Source: Phyllobates terribilis (lineage: Eukaryota). From it: 64,000 bases of DNA. The stretch spans positions 512,244,001 to 512,308,000 of the forward strand of contig NW_027362771.1 of assembly GCF_046119375.1 (NCBI RefSeq), written 5' to 3'. The notes under the pieces were generated by a model. That model did not search any database, was not told where the DNA came from, and saw only the letters and a program-made list of their open reading frames with translations. How positions within the stretch are numbered: the first letter of the stretch is position 1; each line of letters begins with the position of its first letter. Below are positions 40,795-63,664 of the stretch, in pieces. Both the position numbers and the translations under genes were made by a program.

Positions 40795-43700
40795 ATGAAG
40801 AAGGCAGGGAGTAAGGCATGTGGTCGTGGGCGTGGAGTTTCTGCAGGGAGAGGACGTGAGGATTCTGTGCCTGCAGGGAGAGGACGTGGGGATTCTGTGC
40901 CTGCTGCGGGCACCAGTGACTCAGCATCCCCCAGTTTTACCAGGGAACAGTCCTTTATGCGCAGCTTTGTAGGAGCTAGCCGTACCCCACTGCTGCGCGA
41001 GGACCAAATTGAAGCCGTTGTCGGATGGATGGCAGCTAACGCATCGACTTCAATTAGTTCCAGATCCTCTCAGGTCCTGAGCACTGAAGAGCACCCATCT
41101 GTCTCTTCACCACCTGCCAAATTGCCCAGGCAGTCAGAGAGCCCTGGACAGGAGCCATCTCTACTTCTGTTCTCTGAATCTCTTGGCTTGGAAAGAGGGG
41201 GCCAGCCAAGCAGAATTCGAGAATTTGAAGAAGAGGTAGTATGCAGTGATGCGCAACCGTTTTGTCTCTCTGAATCTGAAGAGGCGGGTGGGCCAGTGCC
41301 TATGGTCAGCAGCACACCTCAGTACGCATCTGATGATGAGACTCAGGTGCCACTTTCTGGTGCGTACTGTGCTGTCGAGACTACCCAGGAGAAGCAGTTG
41401 TTTGAAGAGGGTGGTGTAGATGATGAGGTCCTTGACCCATCATGGCGTGAGGGACAGGAAGGTGGTGGGAGCAGCTCTGAGGAAGAGATTCCCCGAACGG
41501 CCCAAAAAGGAGGGAGAGGGAGGGGGCAGACTTGGTTGCCTGTAGCCTCCACTTCGGCACCCATTAGGAGCATGGCTCTTCCAAAATCCAAAGCGGGCGC
41601 TCCCAAGACTTGCAGTGCCTGGTCCTTTTTTGACACAGTTGCAGATGACATTTGCTTTGTCAAATGCAAGCTGTGTAATCAGAAGGTGAAAAGAGGGAAA
41701 AGTGTCAGCAACCTCAATACCACAAATATGTGGAAACATGTGCGGACCAAGCATGTGGTGGAGTTACACAAACACACTGAAGACCTAGGCCAACCTACAG
41801 CGCCACCTACCACCTCTTCAGCTCGTGTTGTAGCCTCTTCCTCCAGCTCACACACAGCTGGTTCGGCTTCCTCACAGGATCGCCATGGAAGAATCTCTGG
41901 CACTGTCGTACAGAGACACAGTGTAATTCCACCCACAGCACCACTTTCCCAGTCATCCTCACACTCCCAGGCCAGTCTACAGCCATCGTTAGCACAGGCA
42001 TGGGAGAAAAGGCGCCCATACTCGGCAAACCACCCCCGAGCACAGGCTCTGAATGCTGGCATTGCTAAACTACTGGCCCTTGAAATGCTATCATTCAGGC
42101 TGGTGGAGACTGACACATTCCGTAACTTTATGGCATTGGCAGTCCCACAATACAACGTGCCCAGCCGCTTTTATTTCAGCAGGCAAGCCGTCCCTGCCCT
42201 GCAACATCATGTGGAGGGAAAAATTAAACATGCGCTACAAAACGCCGTCAGTAGCAAGGTCCACCTGACCACTGATGCGTGGACCAGTAAGCATGGACAG
42301 GGACGATACCTTTCCCTCACTGCCCATTGGGTAAATGTTGTGGAGCCGGGTACAGATCTTGAGAGTGGCGCTGTACGTGTTCTGCCAACTCCAAGGATTG
42401 CAGGAATCCAGTCTGTACACATTGACTCCTCCTCATACTCCAGTTCCTCTGAATCAGCGCTGCAGGAGCCGTCACGGTCTACCTCCACATCGACCCGTGA
42501 ACGGTTACCTGTTATGATGACCGATATGAGCACAGCCGTGGCCAAACGTCAACAGGCCGTATTAAAATTAATTTCTTTGGGGAATCGAAGCCACACAGCG
42601 CAGGAGCTCTGGAATGCCATCAAGCAGCAGAGTGACGTGTGGTTTGTGCCAGCGAATCTCCAGCCAGGCATGGTAGTGTGTGACAATGGCCGAAATCTGG
42701 TGGCAGCTCTGGGCCTAGGCAACCTCACTCACATCCCATGTCTGGCACATGTGCTCAACTTGGTCGTGCAGAGTTTTTTGAGGGACTATCCGGATCTTGA
42801 TGCACTGCTTCACAAGGTCCGCATAGAGTGCGCTCACTTGCGGCGTTCCAGCAATGCAAGATCACGCATTGCAGCTCTGCAGCGCCGATTATGTCTTCCG
42901 GAACATCGCATCATATGTGACCTACCCACCAGGTGGAATTCAACGTTACATATGTTGGAGAGGTTGTGTGAGCAGCAGGCAGCAGTAATGGAGTACCAGC
43001 TGCAGCAGGCGCAAACAAGTCGCAGTGCGCGCCGTTCACACTTCACCACCACTGAGTGGGCCTCTATGAAGGACATTTGCCACGTTTTGCGTGCCTTCGA
43101 TTATTCCACGCGGATGGCGAGTGCAGATGATGCACTAGTCAGCATGACTATCCCCCTTATCTGCCTGCTTGAAAAAACACTGCAAGCACTAAGGGACGAG
43201 GTTTTGGAAGAGGTGGAGGATGAGGAGTCACAAATGCCATCTGCTTCTCTACAGTCTGCGCAACGTGGTTCCTCACAAAGGCCTAGGCAGGGGACACTTT
43301 GTGAGGAGGATGAGGAGGAGTCAATGGATGAGGAAGACATCTGTCCAGAGGAGGGAGGTACACAATGCTCTAGTAGTCAGTATCTAGAGCGAGGGTGGGG
43401 TGATGCAGAGCAGGCAGAGATCACGCCTCAAGCAGGGGACAGCGTTTCTTGGCCATTTGGCAGTCTGCAGCACATGGTTGATTTCATGCTGCAGTGCCTC
43501 AGAAACGACCGCCGCATCGCCCACATTCTCAACACGGCTGATTATTGGGTGTCCACCCTCCTAGATCCTCGCTACCGGGACAACTTACAAAGCCTCATAA
43601 CACCATTGAACCGGGAGCGTAAAATGCGGGAGTACCAAGACGCACTGGTGCATTCCATCATGTTCTCCATTCCAACCGAGAGCAGTGCTGCTAGTGCTTT

Positions 43701-44175
43701 ACAAAGCAGCTCAGTGCGTCGAGGCAGTGGAGGAAGCTCTGCACAAAGAGGGAGCAGAAGCAGCGCCTCAGCACAAGGCAAGACCAGTATGGCCGAAATG
43801 TGGCAAAGTTTTGTGTCCCCGCCGCCACAAATGTCTACACCATCACAGACAGCTCCAGTCAGCAGGAGGCAACGTTTCCGTCAGATGGTGACAGACTACA
43901 TGTCTTGCCCTCTTAGTGTACTCCCAGACGGCTCTTCTCCCTTCAAGTTTTGGGTCTGTAAGCTGGATACATGGCCAGAGCTTAGTCAGTATGCACTGGA
44001 GGTGCTAGCTTGCCCTGCTGCTAGTGTATTATCGGAACGCGTCTTTAGTGCCGCAGGTGGTGTACTAACAGACCGTCGCATGCGACTATCCTCCGATAAC
44101 GTTGACCGGCTTACTTTTCTCAAAATGAACAAGGCCTGGATCTCTCATGAATTTGCCAGTCCTCTTCCAGAATAA
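40795..44175 (+). CDS. hAT transposase, 1126 aa, uninterrupted (BED zinc finger + RNase H-like DDE + C-terminal dimerisation region)
   Basis: BED finger AWSFF...CKLC...MWKHVRTKH; TTD494AWTS, VCD630NG, C649LAH, TRWNST, WPEL...ACPAASVLSE1081RVFS. Confidence 0.95.
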   Translation: MKKAGSKACGRGRGVSAGRGREDSVPAGRGRGDSVPAAGTSDSASPSFTREQSFMRSFVGASRTPLLREDQIEAVVGWMAANASTSISSRSSQVLSTEEHPSVSSPPAKLPRQSESPGQEPSLLLFSESLGLERGGQPSRIREFEEEVVCSDAQPFCLSESEEAGGPVPMVSSTPQYASDDETQVPLSGAYCAVETTQEKQLFEEGGVDDEVLDPSWREGQEGGGSSSEEEIPRTAQKGGRGRGQTWLPVASTSAPIRSMALPKSKAGAPKTCSAWSFFDTVADDICFVKCKLCNQKVKRGKSVSNLNTTNMWKHVRTKHVVELHKHTEDLGQPTAPPTTSSARVVASSSSSHTAGSASSQDRHGRISGTVVQRHSVIPPTAPLSQSSSHSQASLQPSLAQAWEKRRPYSANHPRAQALNAGIAKLLALEMLSFRLVETDTFRNFMALAVPQYNVPSRFYFSRQAVPALQHHVEGKIKHALQNAVSSKVHLTTDAWTSKHGQGRYLSLTAHWVNVVEPGTDLESGAVRVLPTPRIAGIQSVHIDSSSYSSSSESALQEPSRSTSTSTRERLPVMMTDMSTAVAKRQQAVLKLISLGNRSHTAQELWNAIKQQSDVWFVPANLQPGMVVCDNGRNLVAALGLGNLTHIPCLAHVLNLVVQSFLRDYPDLDALLHKVRIECAHLRRSSNARSRIAALQRRLCLPEHRIICDLPTRWNSTLHMLERLCEQQAAVMEYQLQQAQTSRSARRSHFTTTEWASMKDICHVLRAFDYSTRMASADDALVSMTIPLICLLEKTLQALRDEVLEEVEDEESQMPSASLQSAQRGSSQRPRQGTLCEEDEEESMDEEDICPEEGGTQCSSSQYLERGWGDAEQAEITPQAGDSVSWPFGSLQHMVDFMLQCLRNDRRIAHILNTADYWVSTLLDPRYRDNLQSLITPLNRERKMREYQDALVHSIMFSIPTESSAASALQSSSVRRGSGGSSAQRGSRSSASAQGKTSMAEMWQSFVSPPPQMSTPSQTAPVSRRQRFRQMVTDYMSCPLSVLPDGSSPFKFWVCKLDTWPELSQYALEVLACPAASVLSERVFSAAGGVLTDRRMRLSSDNVDRLTFLKMNKAWISHEFASPLPE

Positions 44176-44248
44176 ATAATTGGTTGGCAACAGTATCCAG
44201 GTCTCCTGTTCTGTTCATGTTTCTACCACCTGAACTGTAATCCCTGAG

Positions 44249-45870
44249 CTCCAACACCGCCAGTTGGCGCTCGGAAGTGCCGTCTGCACAGTCAACACTT
44301 GCTGCCGTGTTATTGGGGTTCAGTAACGTCAGCTGTTCTCCTGCTGTGCGGACGGCAATTTCTCCTGATTTGTCCACATCCACTGTACTACACATTTTAA
44401 AGTTGCTCCAATTACTCCTCTGGCTCCTCTGTTTTCATTCTTATCCCTGGGCTCCAGCACCGCCAGTTGGCGCTCGGAAGTGCTGTCTGCACAGTCAACA
44501 CTTGCTACCATGTTATTGGGGTTCAGTAACGTCAGCTGTTCCCCTGCTGTGCGGACGGCAATTTCTCCTGCTCTGTCCACATTCTCACTACTACAGATTT
44601 TAAAGTTGCTCCAATTACACCTCTGGCTCCTCTGTTTTCAGTATTATCCCTGAGCTCCAACACCGCCAGTTGGCGCACGGAAGTGCCGTCTGCACAGTCA
44701 ACACTTGCTGCCGTGTTATTGGGGTTCAGTAACGTCAGCTGTTCTCCTGCTGTGCGGACGGCAATTTCTCCTGCTTTGTCCAAATCCACTGTACTACACA
44801 TTTTAAAGTTGCTCGAATTACACCTCTGGCTCCTCTGTTTTCATTCTTATCCCTGGGCTCCAGCACCGCCAGTTGGCGCTCGGAAGTGCCGTCTGCACAG
44901 TCAACACTTGCTGCCGTGTTATTGGGGTTCAGTAACGTCAGCTGTTCTCCTGCTGTGCGGACGGCAATTTCTCCTGCTTTGTCCACATCCACTGTACTAC
45001 ACATTTTAAAGTTGCTCGAATTACACCTCTGGCTCCTCTGTTTTCATTCTTATCCCTGGGCTCCAGCACCGCCAGTTGGCGCTCGGAAGTGCCGTCTGCA
45101 CAGTCAACACTTGCTACCATGTTATTGGGGTTCAGTAACGTCAGCTGTTCCCCTGCTGTGTTCACGGCAATTTCTCCTGCTCTGTCCATATTCACTGTGC
45201 TACTTATTTAAAACTTGCTCCAATTACACCTCTGGCTCCTCCGTTTTTAGTATTTACCCTGGGCTCCAACACCGCCAGTTGGCGCTCGGAAGTGCTGTCT
45301 GCACAGTCAACACTTGCTACCATGTTATTGGGGTTCAGTAACGTCAGCTGTTCCCCTGCTGTGCGGACGGCAATTTCTCCTGCTCTGTCCACATTCTCAC
45401 TACTACAGATTTTAAAGTTGCTCCAATTACACCTCTGGCTCCTCTGTTTTCATTCTTATCCCTGGGCTCCAGCACCGCCAGTTGGCGCTCGGAAGTGCCG
45501 TCTGCACAGTCAACACTTGCTGCGGTGTTATTGGGGTTCGGTAACGTCAGCTGTTCCCCTGCTGTGTTCACGGCAATTTCTCCTGCTCTGTCCATATTCA
45601 CTGTGCTACTTATTTAAAACTTGCTCCAATTACACCTCTGGCTCCTCCGTTTTTAGTATTTACCCTGGGCTCCAATACCGCTAGTTGCTGCTCAGAAGTG
45701 CCGTCTGCACAGTCAACGCTTGCTCCAGTGTTATTGGGATTCAGTAACGTCAGCTGATCCCCAGCTGTGTGTCCGGCAAATTCTCCTGCTTTGTCCACAT
45801 CCACTGTAGTACGGATTTAAAACCTCCTCCAAATACACCTCTGGCTCTTCTGTTTTTAGTATTTACCCTG
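44249..45870. repeat. 203-bp tandem array (~8 copies) inside the hAT element
   Basis: Unit ctcca(a/g)caccgccagttggcgctcggaagtg... starts at 44249, 44452, 44655, 44858, 45061, 45264, 45467, 45670; explains the repeated ORFs. Confidence 0.95.
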
Positions 45871-47320
45871 GGCTCCAGCACCGCCAGCTGGTTCTCGGCA
45901 GTTCCATTGGCTCTTGTACCTTCTGCTACCCATCCGGGTTCCAGTACCGTCAGCTGGTTCTCGGCAGTGTCTTTGGCACGGGTACTCCCTCCTGCCCAGC
46001 CTGGTTCCAGCACGCCAGCTGTTTCCGGGTAGTGTCAACGTCACTTTGCCTCCAATGCGTTGTCCTGTCGTGTTGCGGTCGGGTTAGCCGACTCTATGGT
46101 GCCTGCAGTTTAGGTGACTCCTATGTGGGCTGCGGGATCTGGCAATGAAGGCTGGTTCCATAGTGCCAATAGGACAAGCACCCTCTGTAGGACTGTGGGT
46201 TTTGGTAACTGCGGCCGGCTCGCGGCCTTGAACTTTTTTTTTACATGGGTACCTTCTGCTACCCATCCGGGTTCCAGTACCGTCAGCTGGTTCTCGGCAG
46301 TGCCTTTGGATTAGGTGCCTCCTTCTCGGTATCCAAGTTCCACCAACGTCTGCTGGTCCTTGGTAGTGCTTTCTGGCACAGGTACCTCCTGCTTAGTAAC
46401 CGAGTTCCAGTAACATCAGCTGGTCCTCGGTAGTTCCATTGGCTCTTGTACCTTCTGCTACCCATCCGGGTTCCAGTACCGTCAGCTGGTCCTCGGTAGT
46501 TCCATTTGCTCTTGTATCTTCTGCTACCCATCCGGGTTCCAGTACCGTCAGCTGGTTCTCGGCAGTGTCTTTGGCACGGGTACTCCCTCCTGCCCAGCCT
46601 GGTTCCAGCACGCCAGCTGTTTCCGGGTAGTGTCAACGTCACTTTGCCTCCAATGCGTTGTCCTGTCGTGTTGCGGTCGGGTTAGCCGACTCTATGGTGC
46701 CTGCAGTTTAGGTGACTCCTATGTGGGCTGCGGGATCTGGCAATGAAGGCTGGTTCCATAGTGCCAATAGGACAAGCACCCTCTGTAGGACTGTGGGTTT
46801 TGGTAACTGCGGCCGGCTCGCGGCCTTGAACTTTTTTTTTACATGGGTACCTTCTGCTACCCATCCGGGTTCCAGTACCGTCAGCTGGTTCTCGGCAGTG
46901 CCTTTGGATTAGGTGCCTCCTTCTCGGTATCCAAGTTCCACCAACGTCTGCTGGTCCTTGGTAGTGCTTTCTGGCACAGGTACCTCCTGCTTAGTAACCG
47001 AGTTCCAGTAACATCAGCTGGTCCTCGGTAGTTCCATTGGCTCTTGTACCTTCTGCTACCCATCCGGGTTCCAGTACCGTCAGCTGGTTCTCGGCAGTGC
47101 CTTTGGATTAGGTGCCTCCTTCTCGGTATCCAAGTTCCACCAACGTCTGCTGGTCCTTGGTAGTGCTTTCTGGCACAGGTACCTCCTGCTTAGTAACCGA
47201 GTTCCAGTAACATCAGCTGGTCCTCGGTAGTTCCATTGGCTCTTGTACCTTCTGCTATCCATCCGGGTTCCAGTACCGTCAGCTGGTCCTCGGTAGTTCC
47301 TCAGCTTTCTTGTACCTTCT
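45870..47320. repeat. Nested 598-bp and ~198-bp duplications built from a ~60-bp subunit, inside the hAT element
   Basis: Identical ORFs at offset 598 (46084/46682, 46114/46712); gtaccttctgctacccatccgggttccagtaccgtcagctgg recurs many times. Confidence 0.9.
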
Positions 47321-47380
47321 GCTACATTTCCAAGTTCAAGCTTTTTGAAATGGTTCTTGGTAATCACTCTGGATCTCCCT

Positions 47381-48200
47381 GACGAGGACCCTGAAGACGA
47401 GGACCCTGAAGACCAACCCTAAGAAGACGAGGACCCCGAAGACAATGACCCTGAAGACGAGGACCCTGAAGACCACCCCGAAGAAGACGAGGACCCTGAA
47501 GACCACCCCGAAGAAGACGAGGACCCTGAAGACCACCCCGAAGAAGACGAGGACCCCGAAGACGAGGACCCCGAAGACGAGGACCCCGAAGACGAGGACC
47601 CCCGAAGACGACGACCCTGAAGACCACCCCGAAGAAGACCAAGAAGATGACCCTGAAGAAGTTGACCAAGAAGACAAAGAAGAGAAGACAAGCACCAAGA
47701 TACAGAAAAACAAGAGACAGAAAACCAAGAAGCAGAAATACAAGAAGCTGCAGAACAAAAAGCGGAAGAACATTAAGCATAAGACTAAAAATCAGAGCAA
47801 AAGATAATATCTAAATTATAAGCAGAAGATGACTAAGCAGTGTATGGGGGTGAGTCCGGTCCTCCTCGTGGTGCCCCTGGAAAAGACCTGCTGCTGCAGG
47901 CCAAACTGAACGCGGACAAATCCTGTTGTAAATCTTTTGTGACGGGCAGAACGAAAGGTGTAATGTCCAACCTTTTATAGATAACAACTACAGGAATGCC
48001 TGTCACAAATAAGAATATGATGAAGAAGAAGAATATGAAGAAGATGAAGAAGTAGAATATGAAGAATGTAAAAAAAAGAATAATACGAAGAAGGTGAAGA
48101 AGAAGAAGGTGAAGAAGAAGTGGATGAAAAAGATGCTGAGGATGATGAAGGAGAAAGTGTGGGAGAAGTAAAAAAGAAGGTGAAGAGCATGGAAGTAGTG
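47381..48200 (+). repeat. Purine-rich GAAGAC/GAAGAA low-complexity tracts in the 3' part of the hAT element
   Basis: (gaagacgaggaccc) type repeats at 47381-47690 and a gaagaa-rich tract at 48010-48200. Confidence 0.85.
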
Positions 48201-48963: not shown

Positions 48964-49263
48964 TAGGGTTGAGCGAGGATGTTCTGTCCGAGTATGCTCG
49001 GGCCGAGCTCCGAGTATTTACAGCTGCTCGGTGATATGGTTGAATCGCTCCCGTGTGCATGATTTGCAACTGTTTGACAGCTTTATTACATGTGAGGAAT
49101 GTGTAAGAAATAAACATTCCTCACATGCAATAAAACTGTCAAACAGTTGCAAATCATGCACACGGGAGCGATTCAACCATATCACCGAGCAGCTGTAAAT
49201 ACTCGGAGCTCGGCCCGAGCATACTCAGCGAAAGGGTTAATAGAACATACTCGCTCAACACTA
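48964..49263. mobile_element. 300-bp palindromic hAT MITE, cds2 intron 5
   Basis: Termini TAGGGTTGAGCG/CGCTCAACACTA; perfect 8-bp TSD CTTGGCAT; near-perfect internal inverted repeat with arms of ~115 bp. Confidence 0.93.
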
Positions 49264-50892: not shown

Positions 50893-51032
50893 CAGTGAGA
50901 TATAGAGCAAAAGAAATGAAGCGATGATATTTGCTGAGGATTCTTAGCGGCTCCTCTCTTTGGACCAGCGTAAAGAAGTAGTCTGTGACCGTCTCTCCAT
51001 AAAAAAAGTAGTTGACACATAACAAGAAGTAC
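50893..51032 (-). CDS. cds2: cds2 exon 5 (140 nt; YFLLCVNYFFYGETVTDYFFTLVQREEPLRILSKYHRFISFALYLTG)
   Basis: CDS2 motif in ORF 50702..51061; cag| acceptor, |GTAAGA donor. Confidence 0.97.
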
Positions 51033-51197
51033 CTGTGGATGATCGAGATACATAAAGACATTCAATGCTAATAAAAGAGAACATTTTTTTTTTCTTAGAT
51101 CATGATAAATTCTCAACCATAATTCTTAAAAAATTCTTTGTGCAGAGATTACTGATACACACTTGTTATTGACGGCCTTTGGTGTTTCTTAAATGCC

Positions 51198-51272
51198 GAG
51201 CATGCCACAAATACTCGGCGAGCACCCGAGCGTGCTTGCCGAAAGAGTTAATACACGTTCGCTCATCACTAC
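51198..51272. mobile_element. Solo right end of a hAT MITE
   Basis: ...tactcggcgagcacccgagc...cgctcatcacta resembles the ends of the MITEs at 24221 and 48964. Confidence 0.6.
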
Positions 51273-51377
51273 TGCTCAGTCCATCATTTATGGGACTGAC
51301 CTATACAGAGCAATGAGGTTGAGGGGGATCACACAGCACTACTTCACTATATGGGTAGCACCTCATTAATGCACTAA

Positions 51378-51625
51378 GCAAATTGCCTCTTCAGAGAGGG
51401 AGAGGATGTAAACTCTAGCGCCACCTATTTGGAAGTAAAAGTGAATATCTACCCTTTAACGAGCACTGTCACATGACTTGGAATAAAAGCCAAGCTAGCA
51501 TCTATATTTGCAAACACACGTTTCGGGGTGTTGCCCTCCTCAGTGCAAAGCAAGAGATCTGATTTTGCTGTATGAGCGGCCTGTCAACAGCATAAGGGGT
51601 AATGTCTCTCCTTGTGGAGAGTGAC
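51378..51625 (-). mobile_element. Retrozyme-like short retroelement copy 1 (segments A-hammerhead-B), cds2 intron 4
   Basis: Shares gtcactctcca(c/t)aaggaga(g/a)ac(a/g)ttacccctt and ctcgttaaaggg...ggtggcgcta...ctctgaagag..aatttgc with 61558-61809. Confidence 0.7.
51507..51549 (-). ncRNA. Minimal type-I hammerhead ribozyme motif
   Basis: Minus strand TTTGCA-CTGAGGA-GGG CAACAC CCC-GAAA-C GTGT G-TT-TGCAAA: complete CUGAnGA/GAAA core, 6-bp stem I, 3-bp stem II, very short stem III, GUU cleavage triplet. Confidence 0.8.
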
Positions 51626-52162
51626 AAGCCACTTTATAGACTGTTCTGGACGATTCATTGACGCTACATAAATAGTGCAGCAATTGCACAGCTTTGATTA
51701 CAGAGGAAGTATTGCAATTTTGATATAAGTACATGAGCTGGATTCATTTGAAGGATCGGCTGTTACATATTTACATGGTTTCTGTCTCATCTGATTGGTT
51801 GACTTGATTCCCTATAGTTATTGTAATCATGATATTAACAAATACCGCCCCCTGTTGCTACTTGCAATCACGTATATAGTCTGTGTGATCCCACATTTGT
51901 AGTCTTCAATATTTTTAATAGCTAACATTAAGGTTTATGTACTTTAATGAAGGATTATACATTTTTGAAATAAATTATGAGGTTTCTACGTCTCCTTCTC
52001 TCTGTAGACAGTAATATCCTCGGCTATCTGTATCAGATCGTCTCAGACTTTGGTGGAACATTACTTTGTCTGTGCACCATAGGCCAGTTCTATCAATGTA
52101 GTCCACAAAAGTATTAACAGCATTGCGAAAGAGAGAGAGCGCGCGAAAGAGAGACACACAGT

Positions 52163-52473
52163 TGGGGCTGTGGAGTCAGTAAGCCAAACCTCCGACTCCT
52201 CAATTCTATGACTCCGACTCCCTCATACATGGCTCATGTTTATGTGATAAATTTACTGTAGCACAGATTCATCTCAGCTAAAAGTTTAGACCCTTAGATC
52301 AGGAATAGGACAGACATTTATAGGACATTTCATAACTTTCCCAAATTCTTATGAAAAAATATTCCCCACTAACTGCACTGAACTACTGTACCCAATTTAT
52401 TATATATTTTAGGAGTTGGAGTCGGTACATTTTATACCGACTCCACCAAAAAGGACACGACTCCGCAGCCCTG
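52163..52473. mobile_element. Non-autonomous derivative of the CAGGGCTGTGG hAT family, cds2 intron 4
   Basis: Termini tggggctgtgg/ccgcagccctg with GGAGTC/GACTCC subterminal repeats; degenerate TSD cacacagt/gagacagt. Confidence 0.8.
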
Positions 52474-52947
52474 GAGACAGTATGGGCAAAAATAGAGCGA
52501 GAGACACAGCAAAGGGGAAAAAAAGAAGATCGCAAGACACAGAGAAGGGGAAAAAAAAAAAAAAAGAGCGCGAGAGAAAAAAAGGCGTAAGAAAAATGCA
52601 AGAGAAAGAGGCCCGGCCACAAGTTTTTCTGACATGTTGCTGTCATCAATTTCTAAGTGAGATAATTTTTTTCAAATGAAATGGAAAAATATCCAAAGTT
52701 CATCTTCTGATCTGTGATCTATGTTCTGTAGTGAATACAATATGGCCATAAGAGACTTCAAAATCATTGCATTCTCGTTTTCTTTACATTTTATACAGCG
52801 CTCCCAATTTTTTAGGAATTGGGATTATAGATGTGACACAAAAATACAAGAGATAAAAGCGATAGATAAAGCTAGATATGAAAGATATTACTAGATGTAT
52901 ACCGTACATACAATTTGTCAGTAATGGCCTTCAAACTTTTTACATAC

Positions 52948-53045
52948 CAGCTAAGTGTCCGAAACCAGGGTAGATCATAGGAATGGTAGACATTGTAGCC
53001 GATCATGATAATCTCCTGGAAACACTTGATCTGCACACACATCAC
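52948..53045 (-). CDS. cds2: cds2 exon 4 (98 nt; [33 protein letters not shown])
   Basis: CDS2 motif in ORF 52872..53090; cag| acceptor, |GTATGT donor; preceded by a 76-nt intron. Confidence 0.97.
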
Positions 53046-61523: not shown

Positions 61524-62855
61524 CCCTTTCACAACCTTGGGTTTTTCTGTTTTTGCGAATTGCCTCTTCAGAGAAAGAGAGGACTTGTACTCTATATATT
61601 GCACGACTCGTTAAAGGGTTGATTGTGACTTGTAGGATCGCTGCTTCCAATAGGTGGCGCTATAGAGTACAAGTCCTCTTTTTCTCTGAAGAGTTAATTT
61701 GCATATTAAATTTCCCAGAGGAGCATTGCACGGCAAACAAGCCTCCATACCTTGACGTGCCAGAGCTGGTGTGTCACTCTCCATAAGGAGAAACGTTACC
61801 CCTTCGACCTCTGTTTTTGCGGTGTTTGTTTTTTGCTCCCCCCTTCTTCCCAGAGCCATAGCATTTTTACTTTTCCATCAATATGGCCATGTGAGGGCTT
61901 GTTTTTCGCGGGACGGGCTGTACTTTTGAACGACACCATGGGTTTTACCATACTGTGTACTGGTACATGGAAAAAAAAAATCAAAGTGCGGTAAAATTGT
62001 AAAAAAATTCCACAATTGTTTTTTTTTTTACCATGTTCAGTAAACTCTAAAACTGACCTGCCATTATGATTCCCCAGGTCATTACGAGTTTGGAGATACC
62101 AAACATGTATAGGTGGTGGGGGAAAAAAAAAAAAAAAAAAGACATTTTCCGAGACCCGTTGCGTCTCTATTTTTCGGGATCTGGGGCCGGGTGAGGGCTT
62201 ATTCTTTGTGCGTCGAGCTGACGTTTTGATGGATACCATTTTGGGGTAGATGTGATCTTTTGATCGCCTGTTATTTGCGAACAAAAAAAACCTTAATTCT
62301 GGCGTTTTGATTTTTTTCTCATTACGCCGTTTACCGATTGGATTAATTCTTTTTATATATCAATAGATCGGGTGATTCTGAACGTGGTGATACAAAATGT
62401 GTAGATTTGATTTTTTTTTTATTGTTTGATTTTGAATGGGGCAAAAAGGGTGGGGGGCGATTTGAACTTTTATTTATTTAAAAAAAAAAAAATGTAACTT
62501 TTCACTTTCTTTAATAGTCTCCATGGGAGAGGCTTCATCCTAAAGTGTGTAACAAAAGTGCTCACTTGCTATGAGCGTGAATCGCTGGGAGGTGACCATG
62601 ACAACAGCAGGGGTCTCTTGCAGACCCCGGATTATCATGCCAACCCATCGGCGACCCTCGGTCATATGACTAGTGACAAACTTCCGGATGACAACGGCAT
62701 TTAACATGTTAACAGCCGCGGGTGGATCGTGATTCCACCCGCGGCTGTTAGAGGCACATGACAGCTGATCAGATCAGCTGTCATGTCCCTGGAAAGGTGC
62801 GGGCTCAACTCCGGAGTCCGCGCCAAAAAGGTCCGCGTCCAAGGTCATTAAGAGG
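61524..62855. mobile_element. piggyBac-like element of the same family as 54599-55809, in opposite orientation, cds2 intron 1
   Basis: TTAA|CCCTTTCACAACC start, ggtcattaagagg|ataa end; 61820-62000 aligns by eye to the reverse complement of 55600-55790; interrupted at 61558-61809. Confidence 0.8.
61558..61809 (+). mobile_element. Retrozyme-like short retroelement copy 2 (inverted head + segments B-C-A), inserted in a piggyBac-like MITE
   Basis: 12-bp TSD TCTGTTTTTGCG (61546-61557, 61810-61821); the first ~42 bp are the inverted complement of 61661-61702. Confidence 0.75.
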
Positions 62856-63664
62856 ATAATGATCGGGACCAATAGAGTGAGATGCGCCTAATTCTTTAAG
62901 AGGTCTCTCAGAGAAAAAATGAAAAATCCATATAGACATCTTCGGGGAGGCGACATCTCACCCTCACATTGAAGATATGGGATTAATTATAACTGGGGAA
63001 GTGAGAAAGAGCAAACACTTCAACCTCCATTGAAGTAGGACCTCCTGCTGTAAACAGGTAATTACATCAGGGGATCTGCTTAGAGCCAGCCACCAAGTAT
63101 AGGATTCGCATACTCCAAGGCGGAGAAGTACACTTCCCGAGATTGAGATTCCTTTGAACAGAGGAATCCCCTAACACTCTGGAGCCAGTGGTCAATGATG
63201 AATATTGGGGTTTACACGGATCCAATATTTATGAGAGATATATTTTCGGCGTCATGGCGAAGTGATGAACATAACACATTCACTCACATCACTGTAAAGC
63301 CGGCCTAACACCTCCAACTTTACATCACACTAGATGGATGATGCTATCCATGCCATGTTTCATCTCTATAAAAAGAAAAAAATTGAGATAATGAAAATGA
63401 CGACAATATCTCCATCCTGGGACCTCCAGGGGCAAAGAGATCCTGGAACCCTACTCTGTGCTCCATGGGATTGTGGTGATCCTAGGGGTCAAACTCCCAG
63501 CAATCAGTAAGTTATCACCTATCCCATGGGTAGGTCATAATCTACAAACTGTACAAACCCTTTAAAGAGCGAGATGATACCAAATCCAAAAAGAGGTCTA
63601 AAAGGTAAAGTTTATCCTTGTGGATAGTGCCAAGCCAGTGTATGAAGACTTCTAGCCACGCAAT

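Follow-up and report, generated by a model that had tools for sequence, protein, structure and literature searches.

A worn hammerhead ribozyme copy in intron 4 of Phyllobates terribilis cds2 belongs to a dispersed repeat family of likely retrozyme type

Within an intron of the Phyllobates terribilis cds2 gene lies a stretch that reads as a complete hammerhead ribozyme in the sense orientation of the pre-mRNA, which raises the question of whether cds2 transcripts are cut there, and of how such a motif came to the locus. We addressed this in the 64-kb window (the whole analysed stretch of 64,000 nucleotides, whose numbering is used throughout) and in related copies elsewhere in the genome. Most probably, the motif belongs to a single, worn copy of a repeat that occurs thousands of times in the genome and is likely a non-autonomous retrozyme mobilised by Penelope-type elements; we predict weak or no cleavage, and cds2 intron 4 is likely spliced normally.

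The motif (Table 1) combines the CUGAnGA and GAAA boxes, an NUH triplet and three stems with stem I open, the features that define a type I hammerhead. Stem I is formed by TTTGCA (51549-51544) and TGCAAA (51512-51507) through six Watson-Crick pairs, stem II by GGG and CCC around a 6-nt loop, and stem III by one A-U and one C-G pair over a GUGU loop, while the GAAA box is complete at 51524-51521 of the minus strand. Sequence reading and descriptor scan agree here with a first-pass annotation, made from the letters alone, that had described this core with its three small stems; the cut that it predicted after GUU, between 51513 and 51512, likewise agrees with our reading of the triplet. The descriptor scan, a check proposed in that annotation, returned 51549-51507 as the sole match, and a strict one, on both strands of the 64-kb window. 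Because 400 windows simulated with a third-order Markov model yielded no match to the strict descriptor and four to the loose one (a separate set of 60 simulations likewise gave none), the motif is more than a chance match. Two other approaches returned blanks. Single-strand folding did not form the hammerhead (z 0.65 to 1.45 against shuffles; 0.65 for the 43-mer), and the Rfam search, also proposed at the outset, yielded no hammerhead match for this copy with RF00163 and its clan at gathering and E-value thresholds. The Rfam blank is uninformative, since five of five family loci picked for an intact core were missed too.

Table 1 Positions of the hammerhead, the repeat copy and the neighbouring cds2 exons in the window.
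Feature	Position	Strand	Details	Basis
Type I hammerhead core	51507..51549	-	stems I 6 bp, II 3 bp, III 2 bp	sequence reading, descriptor scan
Core box CUGAnGA	51537..51543	-	intact, reads CTGAGGA	sequence reading
Stem-loop II	51525..51536	-	one G fewer than 4-bp family form	family comparison
Stem III/dimerisation segment	51514..51521	-	family palindrome disrupted by two changes	family comparison, homoduplex energy
Cleavage triplet GUU	51513..51515	-	predicted cut 51513/51512	sequence reading
Extended stem I, 5' arm	51554..51568	-		family alignment
Extended stem I, 3' arm	51489..51504	-	4/15 pairs broken here	family alignment
Solo copy of hammerhead-bearing repeat	51376..51626	-	incomplete (~250 of ~320 nt)	blastn of 30 loci, nhmmer
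cds2 intron between exons 4 and 5	51033..52947	-	1915 nt, GT-AG	tblastn; contig joint skipping 1915 nt
cds2 exon 5	50893..51032	-		protein matches, tblastn
cds2 exon 4	52948..53045	-		tblastn, contig joints

The host gene was confirmed as cds2 on the minus strand, with exons at about 58142-57993, 53223-53119, 53045-52948 and 51032-50893. The last of these translates into 46 residues with 91-100% identity to the 120 proteins listed, the named ones being mostly phosphatidate cytidylyltransferase 2 and including frog CDS2 matches. With four full-length proteins, tblastn traced twelve exons on this strand between 58142 and about 25164. It did not locate, in the window plus 100 kb, the exon that encodes residues 1-19, and the name 'intron 4' presumes one such further coding exon upstream. 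The hammerhead stands in cds2 sense orientation, its end 474 nt and its cut site 480 nt from the exon 5 acceptor, matching the distance of about 475 nt given initially.

In X8 and X9, two putative RNA runs from the same study, contigs join exons 3, 4 and 5 exactly and skip the 1915 nt of intron 4. The contig comparison took in assembled contigs of four of 23 sequencing runs, none of the 23 being labelled as RNA, and spliced contigs are evidence that some mRNA is made, not that cutting is zero. Among the pieces listed, none of the contigs from the putative RNA runs X8 and X9 covers the motif. DNA contigs of two further samples also contain this copy, X2 with 0 differences over 51223-51555 and X6 with 2 over 51223-51572.

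A genome search with 51400-51700 produced 3623 candidates, of which the 40 scored were 73-95% identical, and nhmmer recovered 51626-51376 at E 9e-70 with a profile that contains this copy itself. Same-strand tandem pairs (17 in 105 loci) have a period of 206-428 nt with a median of 324, so the cds2 intron copy is a single incomplete unit. Three rough estimates put the copy number in the thousands. At the two ends of the cds2 intron copy, contig depth in X2 reaches 34,700 and 63,465 against ~11.7 for single-copy DNA, about 3,000-5,400 times the single-copy level. A pattern of core, palindrome and GUC has 159 exact genome matches (0 for the reversed control) and is present in 2 of 67 aligned copies, which together give roughly 5,000 hammerhead-bearing copies. 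Evenly spaced stretches amounting to 400 kb hold three family loci, all of them 3'-part fragments and none with the hammerhead part, a density that would imply tens of thousands of fragments.

The architecture of the family is that of a retrozyme in several respects. Its unit falls within 150-450 nt, carries one type I hammerhead and occurs in tandem, with a GC content below 50% as the reference value for such units and 0.36-0.51 across the ribozyme region of family copies; target-site duplications, at 8-14 nt, are longer than 4 nt, as described for retrozymes. By these sequence marks, the repeat is likely a non-LTR retrozyme family, which is in keeping with the initial assignment of the motif to the retrozyme- or Penelope-related type I hammerheads. 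Flanking direct repeats of 8-14 nt were seen at 31 of 107 loci and, counting outer flanks only, at 10 of 107, where controls averaged 2.25 and reached at most 6. An inverted part occurs in 48 of the 107 family loci (two loci overlap another), the longest merged span in this set is 1101 nt, and a ~40-nt end piece recurs among family loci. The insertions also display the 5' truncation, partial tandems, inverted copies and 30-40-nt tail of Penelope-like elements (PLEs), and it is the partial tandems, inverted parts and 8-14-nt flanking duplications that point to Penelope-type retrotransposition. A young homogeneous array was not found in the genome searches, the commonest 35-nt core having 11 matches, or 23 with two free positions. 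At the cds2 intron locus itself we see a monomer derivative, not the two or more consecutive units with complete hammerheads of an active retrozyme, and no clear target-site duplication within about 170 nt. Fragments of the same family with inverted parts also lie in the upstream cds2 intron (61554-61813, 63597-63632 and L042:148-410).

To characterise the ribozyme at family level, we aligned 67 copies that had not been selected on the core: 38 from the first search, 28 from a search that used the unit's 3' part, and the copy at L133. In the commonest form, the 6-bp stem I continues beyond an internal loop into 15 further pairs, stem II has 4 bp and the triplet is GUC (52/67 copies). Stem III of the family derives from the palindrome ACACGTGT, exact in 14/67 copies, and the next two commonest forms (15 and 7 copies) are CpG-decay products of it; the palindromic origin suggested for stem III in the first-pass annotation is thereby borne out. 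Its label of a minimal-type hammerhead has to be given up, as the family has the canonical metazoan type I anatomy described in PMC4209133, with a long extended stem I that had been missed and a 4-bp stem II.

Covariation, which had likewise been put forward as a check, gave a modest signal. The 27 pairs are held in 89.7% of cells across the 67 copies, with 18 two-sided changes against 7.7 ± 2.4 in shuffles (0/500 as high) and 14 double transitions against 5.3 ± 1.8 when partners were re-paired within copies (0/2000). However, slid controls gave 17-25 two-sided cells, as many as the real pairing, and one-sided breaks, at 171, lie far above compensations, so that compensatory changes lend the stems modest support. 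Core letters outside CpG sites diverge about half as much as their neighbours once five variable columns are dropped (A/T 12/466 vs 186/3541, p = 0.012; G/C 14/201 vs 462/3388, p = 0.005), a constancy that is not significant within the 38-copy set alone and that we read as selection on source elements, not at the cds2 locus. The CpG-embedded core letter G12 has changed in 24/67 copies, like other CpG sites (36% vs 37%). Copies differ from the commonest letter at 5-23% of positions; the core is intact in 29/67, the strict descriptor is passed by 14/67, and core, stems I and II, palindrome and GUC are all kept in 0/67. On our reading, the ribozyme is selected in source elements and then decays freely after insertion.

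Four metagenome contigs (L205-L208) also hold type I hammerheads and share the stem I end, palindrome and GUC with the family. Their stem II pairs differ, their flanks are unrelated, and two score weakly to Rfam hammerhead models. We rejected them as family members, the rest of the unit being unmatched, and regard them as unrelated hammerheads of like build.

Against this family background, the cds2 intron copy is more worn than average, differing at 14.3% of aligned letters (set means 9.6% and 11.9%) and ranking 41st of 69 matches by family-model score. Its stem II has lost a G, where paralogous contigs carry an extra base at 51533. The broken palindrome has a homoduplex energy of -3.1 kcal/mol versus -10.3 for the intact form, a value that 24/67 copies equal or fall short of; it can pair through G-U wobbles, and with an intact family palindrome the predicted energy is -7.4 kcal/mol. 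The GUU triplet satisfies the NUH rule, and PMC3138052 gives GUC and GUA as the fastest triplets and lists GUU as also usable. Judged by family comparison, the 3-bp stem II, the GUU and the broken palindrome read as decay of this copy, not design. At the same time, the copy keeps each of the 11 invariant core letters and a full 6-bp stem I; an intact core occurs in a minority of copies. The predicted cost of the active fold is 6.9 kcal/mol, close to the median of 5.9 for 48 intact-core copies, so folding energy does not mark the copy as dead; constrained folding was rejected as a discriminator of activity, as it fails to part this copy from intact ones.

From these features we predict that the cds2 intron copy cleaves weakly or not at all. 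Over 164 kb (the window plus 100 kb upstream), no second sense-strand hammerhead was found, and the sole other remnant, at L042:298-383, is antisense to cds2 and has lost the GAAA. The first-pass annotation had stated that every cds2 transcript carries a potential self-cleaving site. As regards the strand this stands, but it overstates the case, as we found no support for cutting of cds2 transcripts. Since thousands of copies are scattered, sense intronic placement is expected for a share of them, and the copy is most likely without effect on cds2.

How such copies arise can be proposed by analogy with published retrozymes. Tandem ~320-nt units of source elements would be transcribed, two hammerheads would pair via the 8-nt stem III palindrome and cut after GUC (a dimer model of this kind is summarised in PMC6765202), and a Penelope reverse transcriptase/GIY-YIG endonuclease would write a DNA copy of the unit-length RNA into the genome, with inserted copies decaying afterwards. 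The genome holds 4370 GIY-YIG candidates, so a mobilising partner is plausible. Among 30 of these 4370 candidates, examined with 1.5-kb flanks, we found no autonomous Penelope element carrying the repeat and no case of the repeat flanking a reverse transcriptase (RT) plus GIY-YIG frame, as a pseudo-LTR (pLTR) does. The repeat was present at one of the 30 loci (L133), inserted within the frame and not downstream: a Penelope-like GIY-YIG-bearing frame is interrupted at L133:2501-2934 by a family copy that includes an inverted part and is flanked by a 12-nt target-site duplication. With 28 GIY-YIG-overlapping frames as tblastn queries, matches were not enriched near family copies (7/109 loci, 340 kb, vs 9/40 stretches, 400 kb), and the descriptor found a hammerhead in none of the 30 GIY-YIG loci and none of the 400 kb of evenly spaced stretches. 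A tblastn search with all long frames of the GIY-YIG loci was discarded as uninformative, matching 38/109 family loci and 32/40 background stretches. One GIY-YIG fragment with the same two stops recurs at many places ~1-2 Mb apart, on small contigs (G000:C37, C320, C430, C810, C297), which suggests a large amplified unit.

Several other explanations were weighed against this one. The repeat could be the pseudo-LTR of an autonomous Penelope-like element and the cds2 intron copy a heavily 5'-truncated insertion of it, an alternative that we hold to be unlikely yet worth keeping in view: the family's ~40-nt end piece, its inverted parts and its partial tandems match features that PMC8557442 describes for PLEs (there with tails of 30-40 nt and inverted truncated copies), and the preprint 10.64898/2026.07.22.740005 relates retrozymes to Penelope pLTRs and proposes their derivation from them. 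Against it stand the canonical, not minimal, ribozyme anatomy, the frame matches that are no denser beside copies (7/109 vs 9/40), and the single GIY-YIG locus of 30 (of 4370, 1.5-kb flanks) in which the repeat sits as an insertion into the frame. Its consequences for cds2 would be unchanged. At the other extreme, a chance arrangement of letters has a vanishingly small probability. The Rfam blank and a 43-mer that folds no better than shuffles would suit it, but Rfam misses intact family copies as well, strict matches appear in 0/400 simulated windows, and the family keeps its 27 pairs with 18 two-sided changes versus 7.7; we consider it refuted by the simulations and the family covariation.

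The remaining explanations concern activity. The copy might share the proposed origin and still cleave at a low, unselected rate, as a monomer via its 2-bp stem III or by trans pairing with other family RNA, and so trim or slightly lower cds2 pre-mRNA. This reading has in its favour the unbroken core and stem I, a predicted heteroduplex energy of -7.4 kcal/mol with the family palindrome, and the 22% cleavage in 1 h that PMC7229834 reports for axolotl monomers whose helix III has 2 bp; but stem II is short, the triplet is GUU, 4/15 extension pairs are broken, intron 4 is spliced exactly in two putative RNA runs, and the cut lies only 480 nt from the acceptor, so that for a slow ribozyme splicing would likely come first. 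We rate this as rather improbable. PMC2995048 reports that introns cut by a slower hammerhead could still splice, whereas a fast ribozyme blocked splicing, and for an Anolis Penelope element PMC11167929 describes no reads starting or ending at the hammerhead site. Co-option of the copy as a regulatory intronic cds2 ribozyme, after the manner of the CPEB3 ribozyme or the ultraconserved amniote intronic hammerheads, would fit its sense orientation, its intact core and its presence in DNA contigs of two further samples (X2, X6). Yet the copy is more diverged than average, what it has lost is precisely what would favour activity, its intact core needs no selection because about a fifth of copies (14/67) pass the same descriptor, and presence in three samples of a single species shows no conservation; we give co-option hardly any credence. 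It is also very doubtful, if marginally conceivable, that intronic sense copies are conditional ribozymes, silent alone and activated in trans by stem III pairing with abundant retrozyme RNA, in which case tissue expression of retrozymes would cut cds2 and many other pre-mRNAs at once, as a genome-wide network in a 10.6-Gb genome. If intronic copies did cut in vivo, thousands of sites would burden transcription or feed domesticated intronic ribozymes. The preferred reading, a worn solo retrozyme copy, has little consequence as found: it adds one amphibian family and shows ribozyme decay after insertion.

Other repeats surround the copy. Within intron 4, a second repeat at 52165-52480 reaches a depth of up to ~1,000,000 versus 11.7 for single-copy DNA, with high depth in the putative RNA runs as well, and is a very high-copy short element; a third repeat fragment at 51197-51271 has a depth of ~35,000 and occurs twice in L017. 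In cds2 intron 5, 48990-49226 is a near-perfect inverted repeat with 116-nt arms, 97% complementary, and a 5-nt gap. The plus-strand stretch 43600-47400 in intron 6 includes a C-terminal piece of a hAT transposase (PF05699, E 9e-16 at 43900-44172); behind this piece come two arrays, one of a 203-nt unit (8.2 copies) and one of a 66-nt unit (about 16 copies). The stretch is likely a hAT DNA transposon whose subterminal arrays are long. Just after these arrays, 47381-48167 (+) consists of GAAGAC-rich, acidic-codon-like repeats of 15 and 30 nt.

Among known systems, the CPEB3 ribozyme and the ultraconserved amniote intronic hammerheads are domesticated intronic ribozymes, single-copy and conserved across species. 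The cds2 motif resembles them in being a self-cleaving motif that lies within an intron, in sense orientation and ahead of an exon; unlike them, it is a decayed member of a family of thousands and gives no hint of selection at its own locus. The minimal hammerheads of PLE pseudo-LTRs, according to PMC4209133, are likewise of type I with palindromic positions around helix III, are found in partial-tandem and inverted insertions, and share what would be a dimer requirement. In them, helix II is longer, helix I is shorter and an additional unpaired base precedes helix II, whereas the present family has 6-bp and 4-bp helices with an extended stem I and lacks the additional base, and no RT/GIY-YIG frame linked to it was found among the 30 candidate loci examined.

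The closest likeness is to amphibian retrozymes (axolotl Rtz331/Rtz353 = HHR_Amex1/2, the newt ~330-bp satellite, and Xenopus families including REP4), with which the family shares canonical type I hammerheads with a short palindromic helix III, a unit of ~320 nt (amphibian mean 316) that encodes no protein, flanking duplications of more than 4 nt, and dispersal as monomers with some dimers or multimers, the amphibian copies being frequent in introns. It differs in that no long homogeneous array was found here and the copies look old. According to PMC7229834, helix III is weak in the type I hammerheads of the axolotl retrozymes (330 and 350 bp), the monomers cleave 6% and 22% in 1 h and the dimers better, and duplications of non-LTR retrozymes exceed 4 nt. 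The preprint 10.64898/2026.07.22.740005 describes non-LTR retrozymes in all seven amphibians examined, with units that average 316 bp; in X. tropicalis, introns hold 43.9% of the copies, and of nine dimers tested one cleaved and eight remained uncut. We found no published account of this repeat family, though the supplement of the latter work may already list it. What this analysis adds is one further amphibian hammerhead-bearing repeat family, of a kind already known in amphibians.
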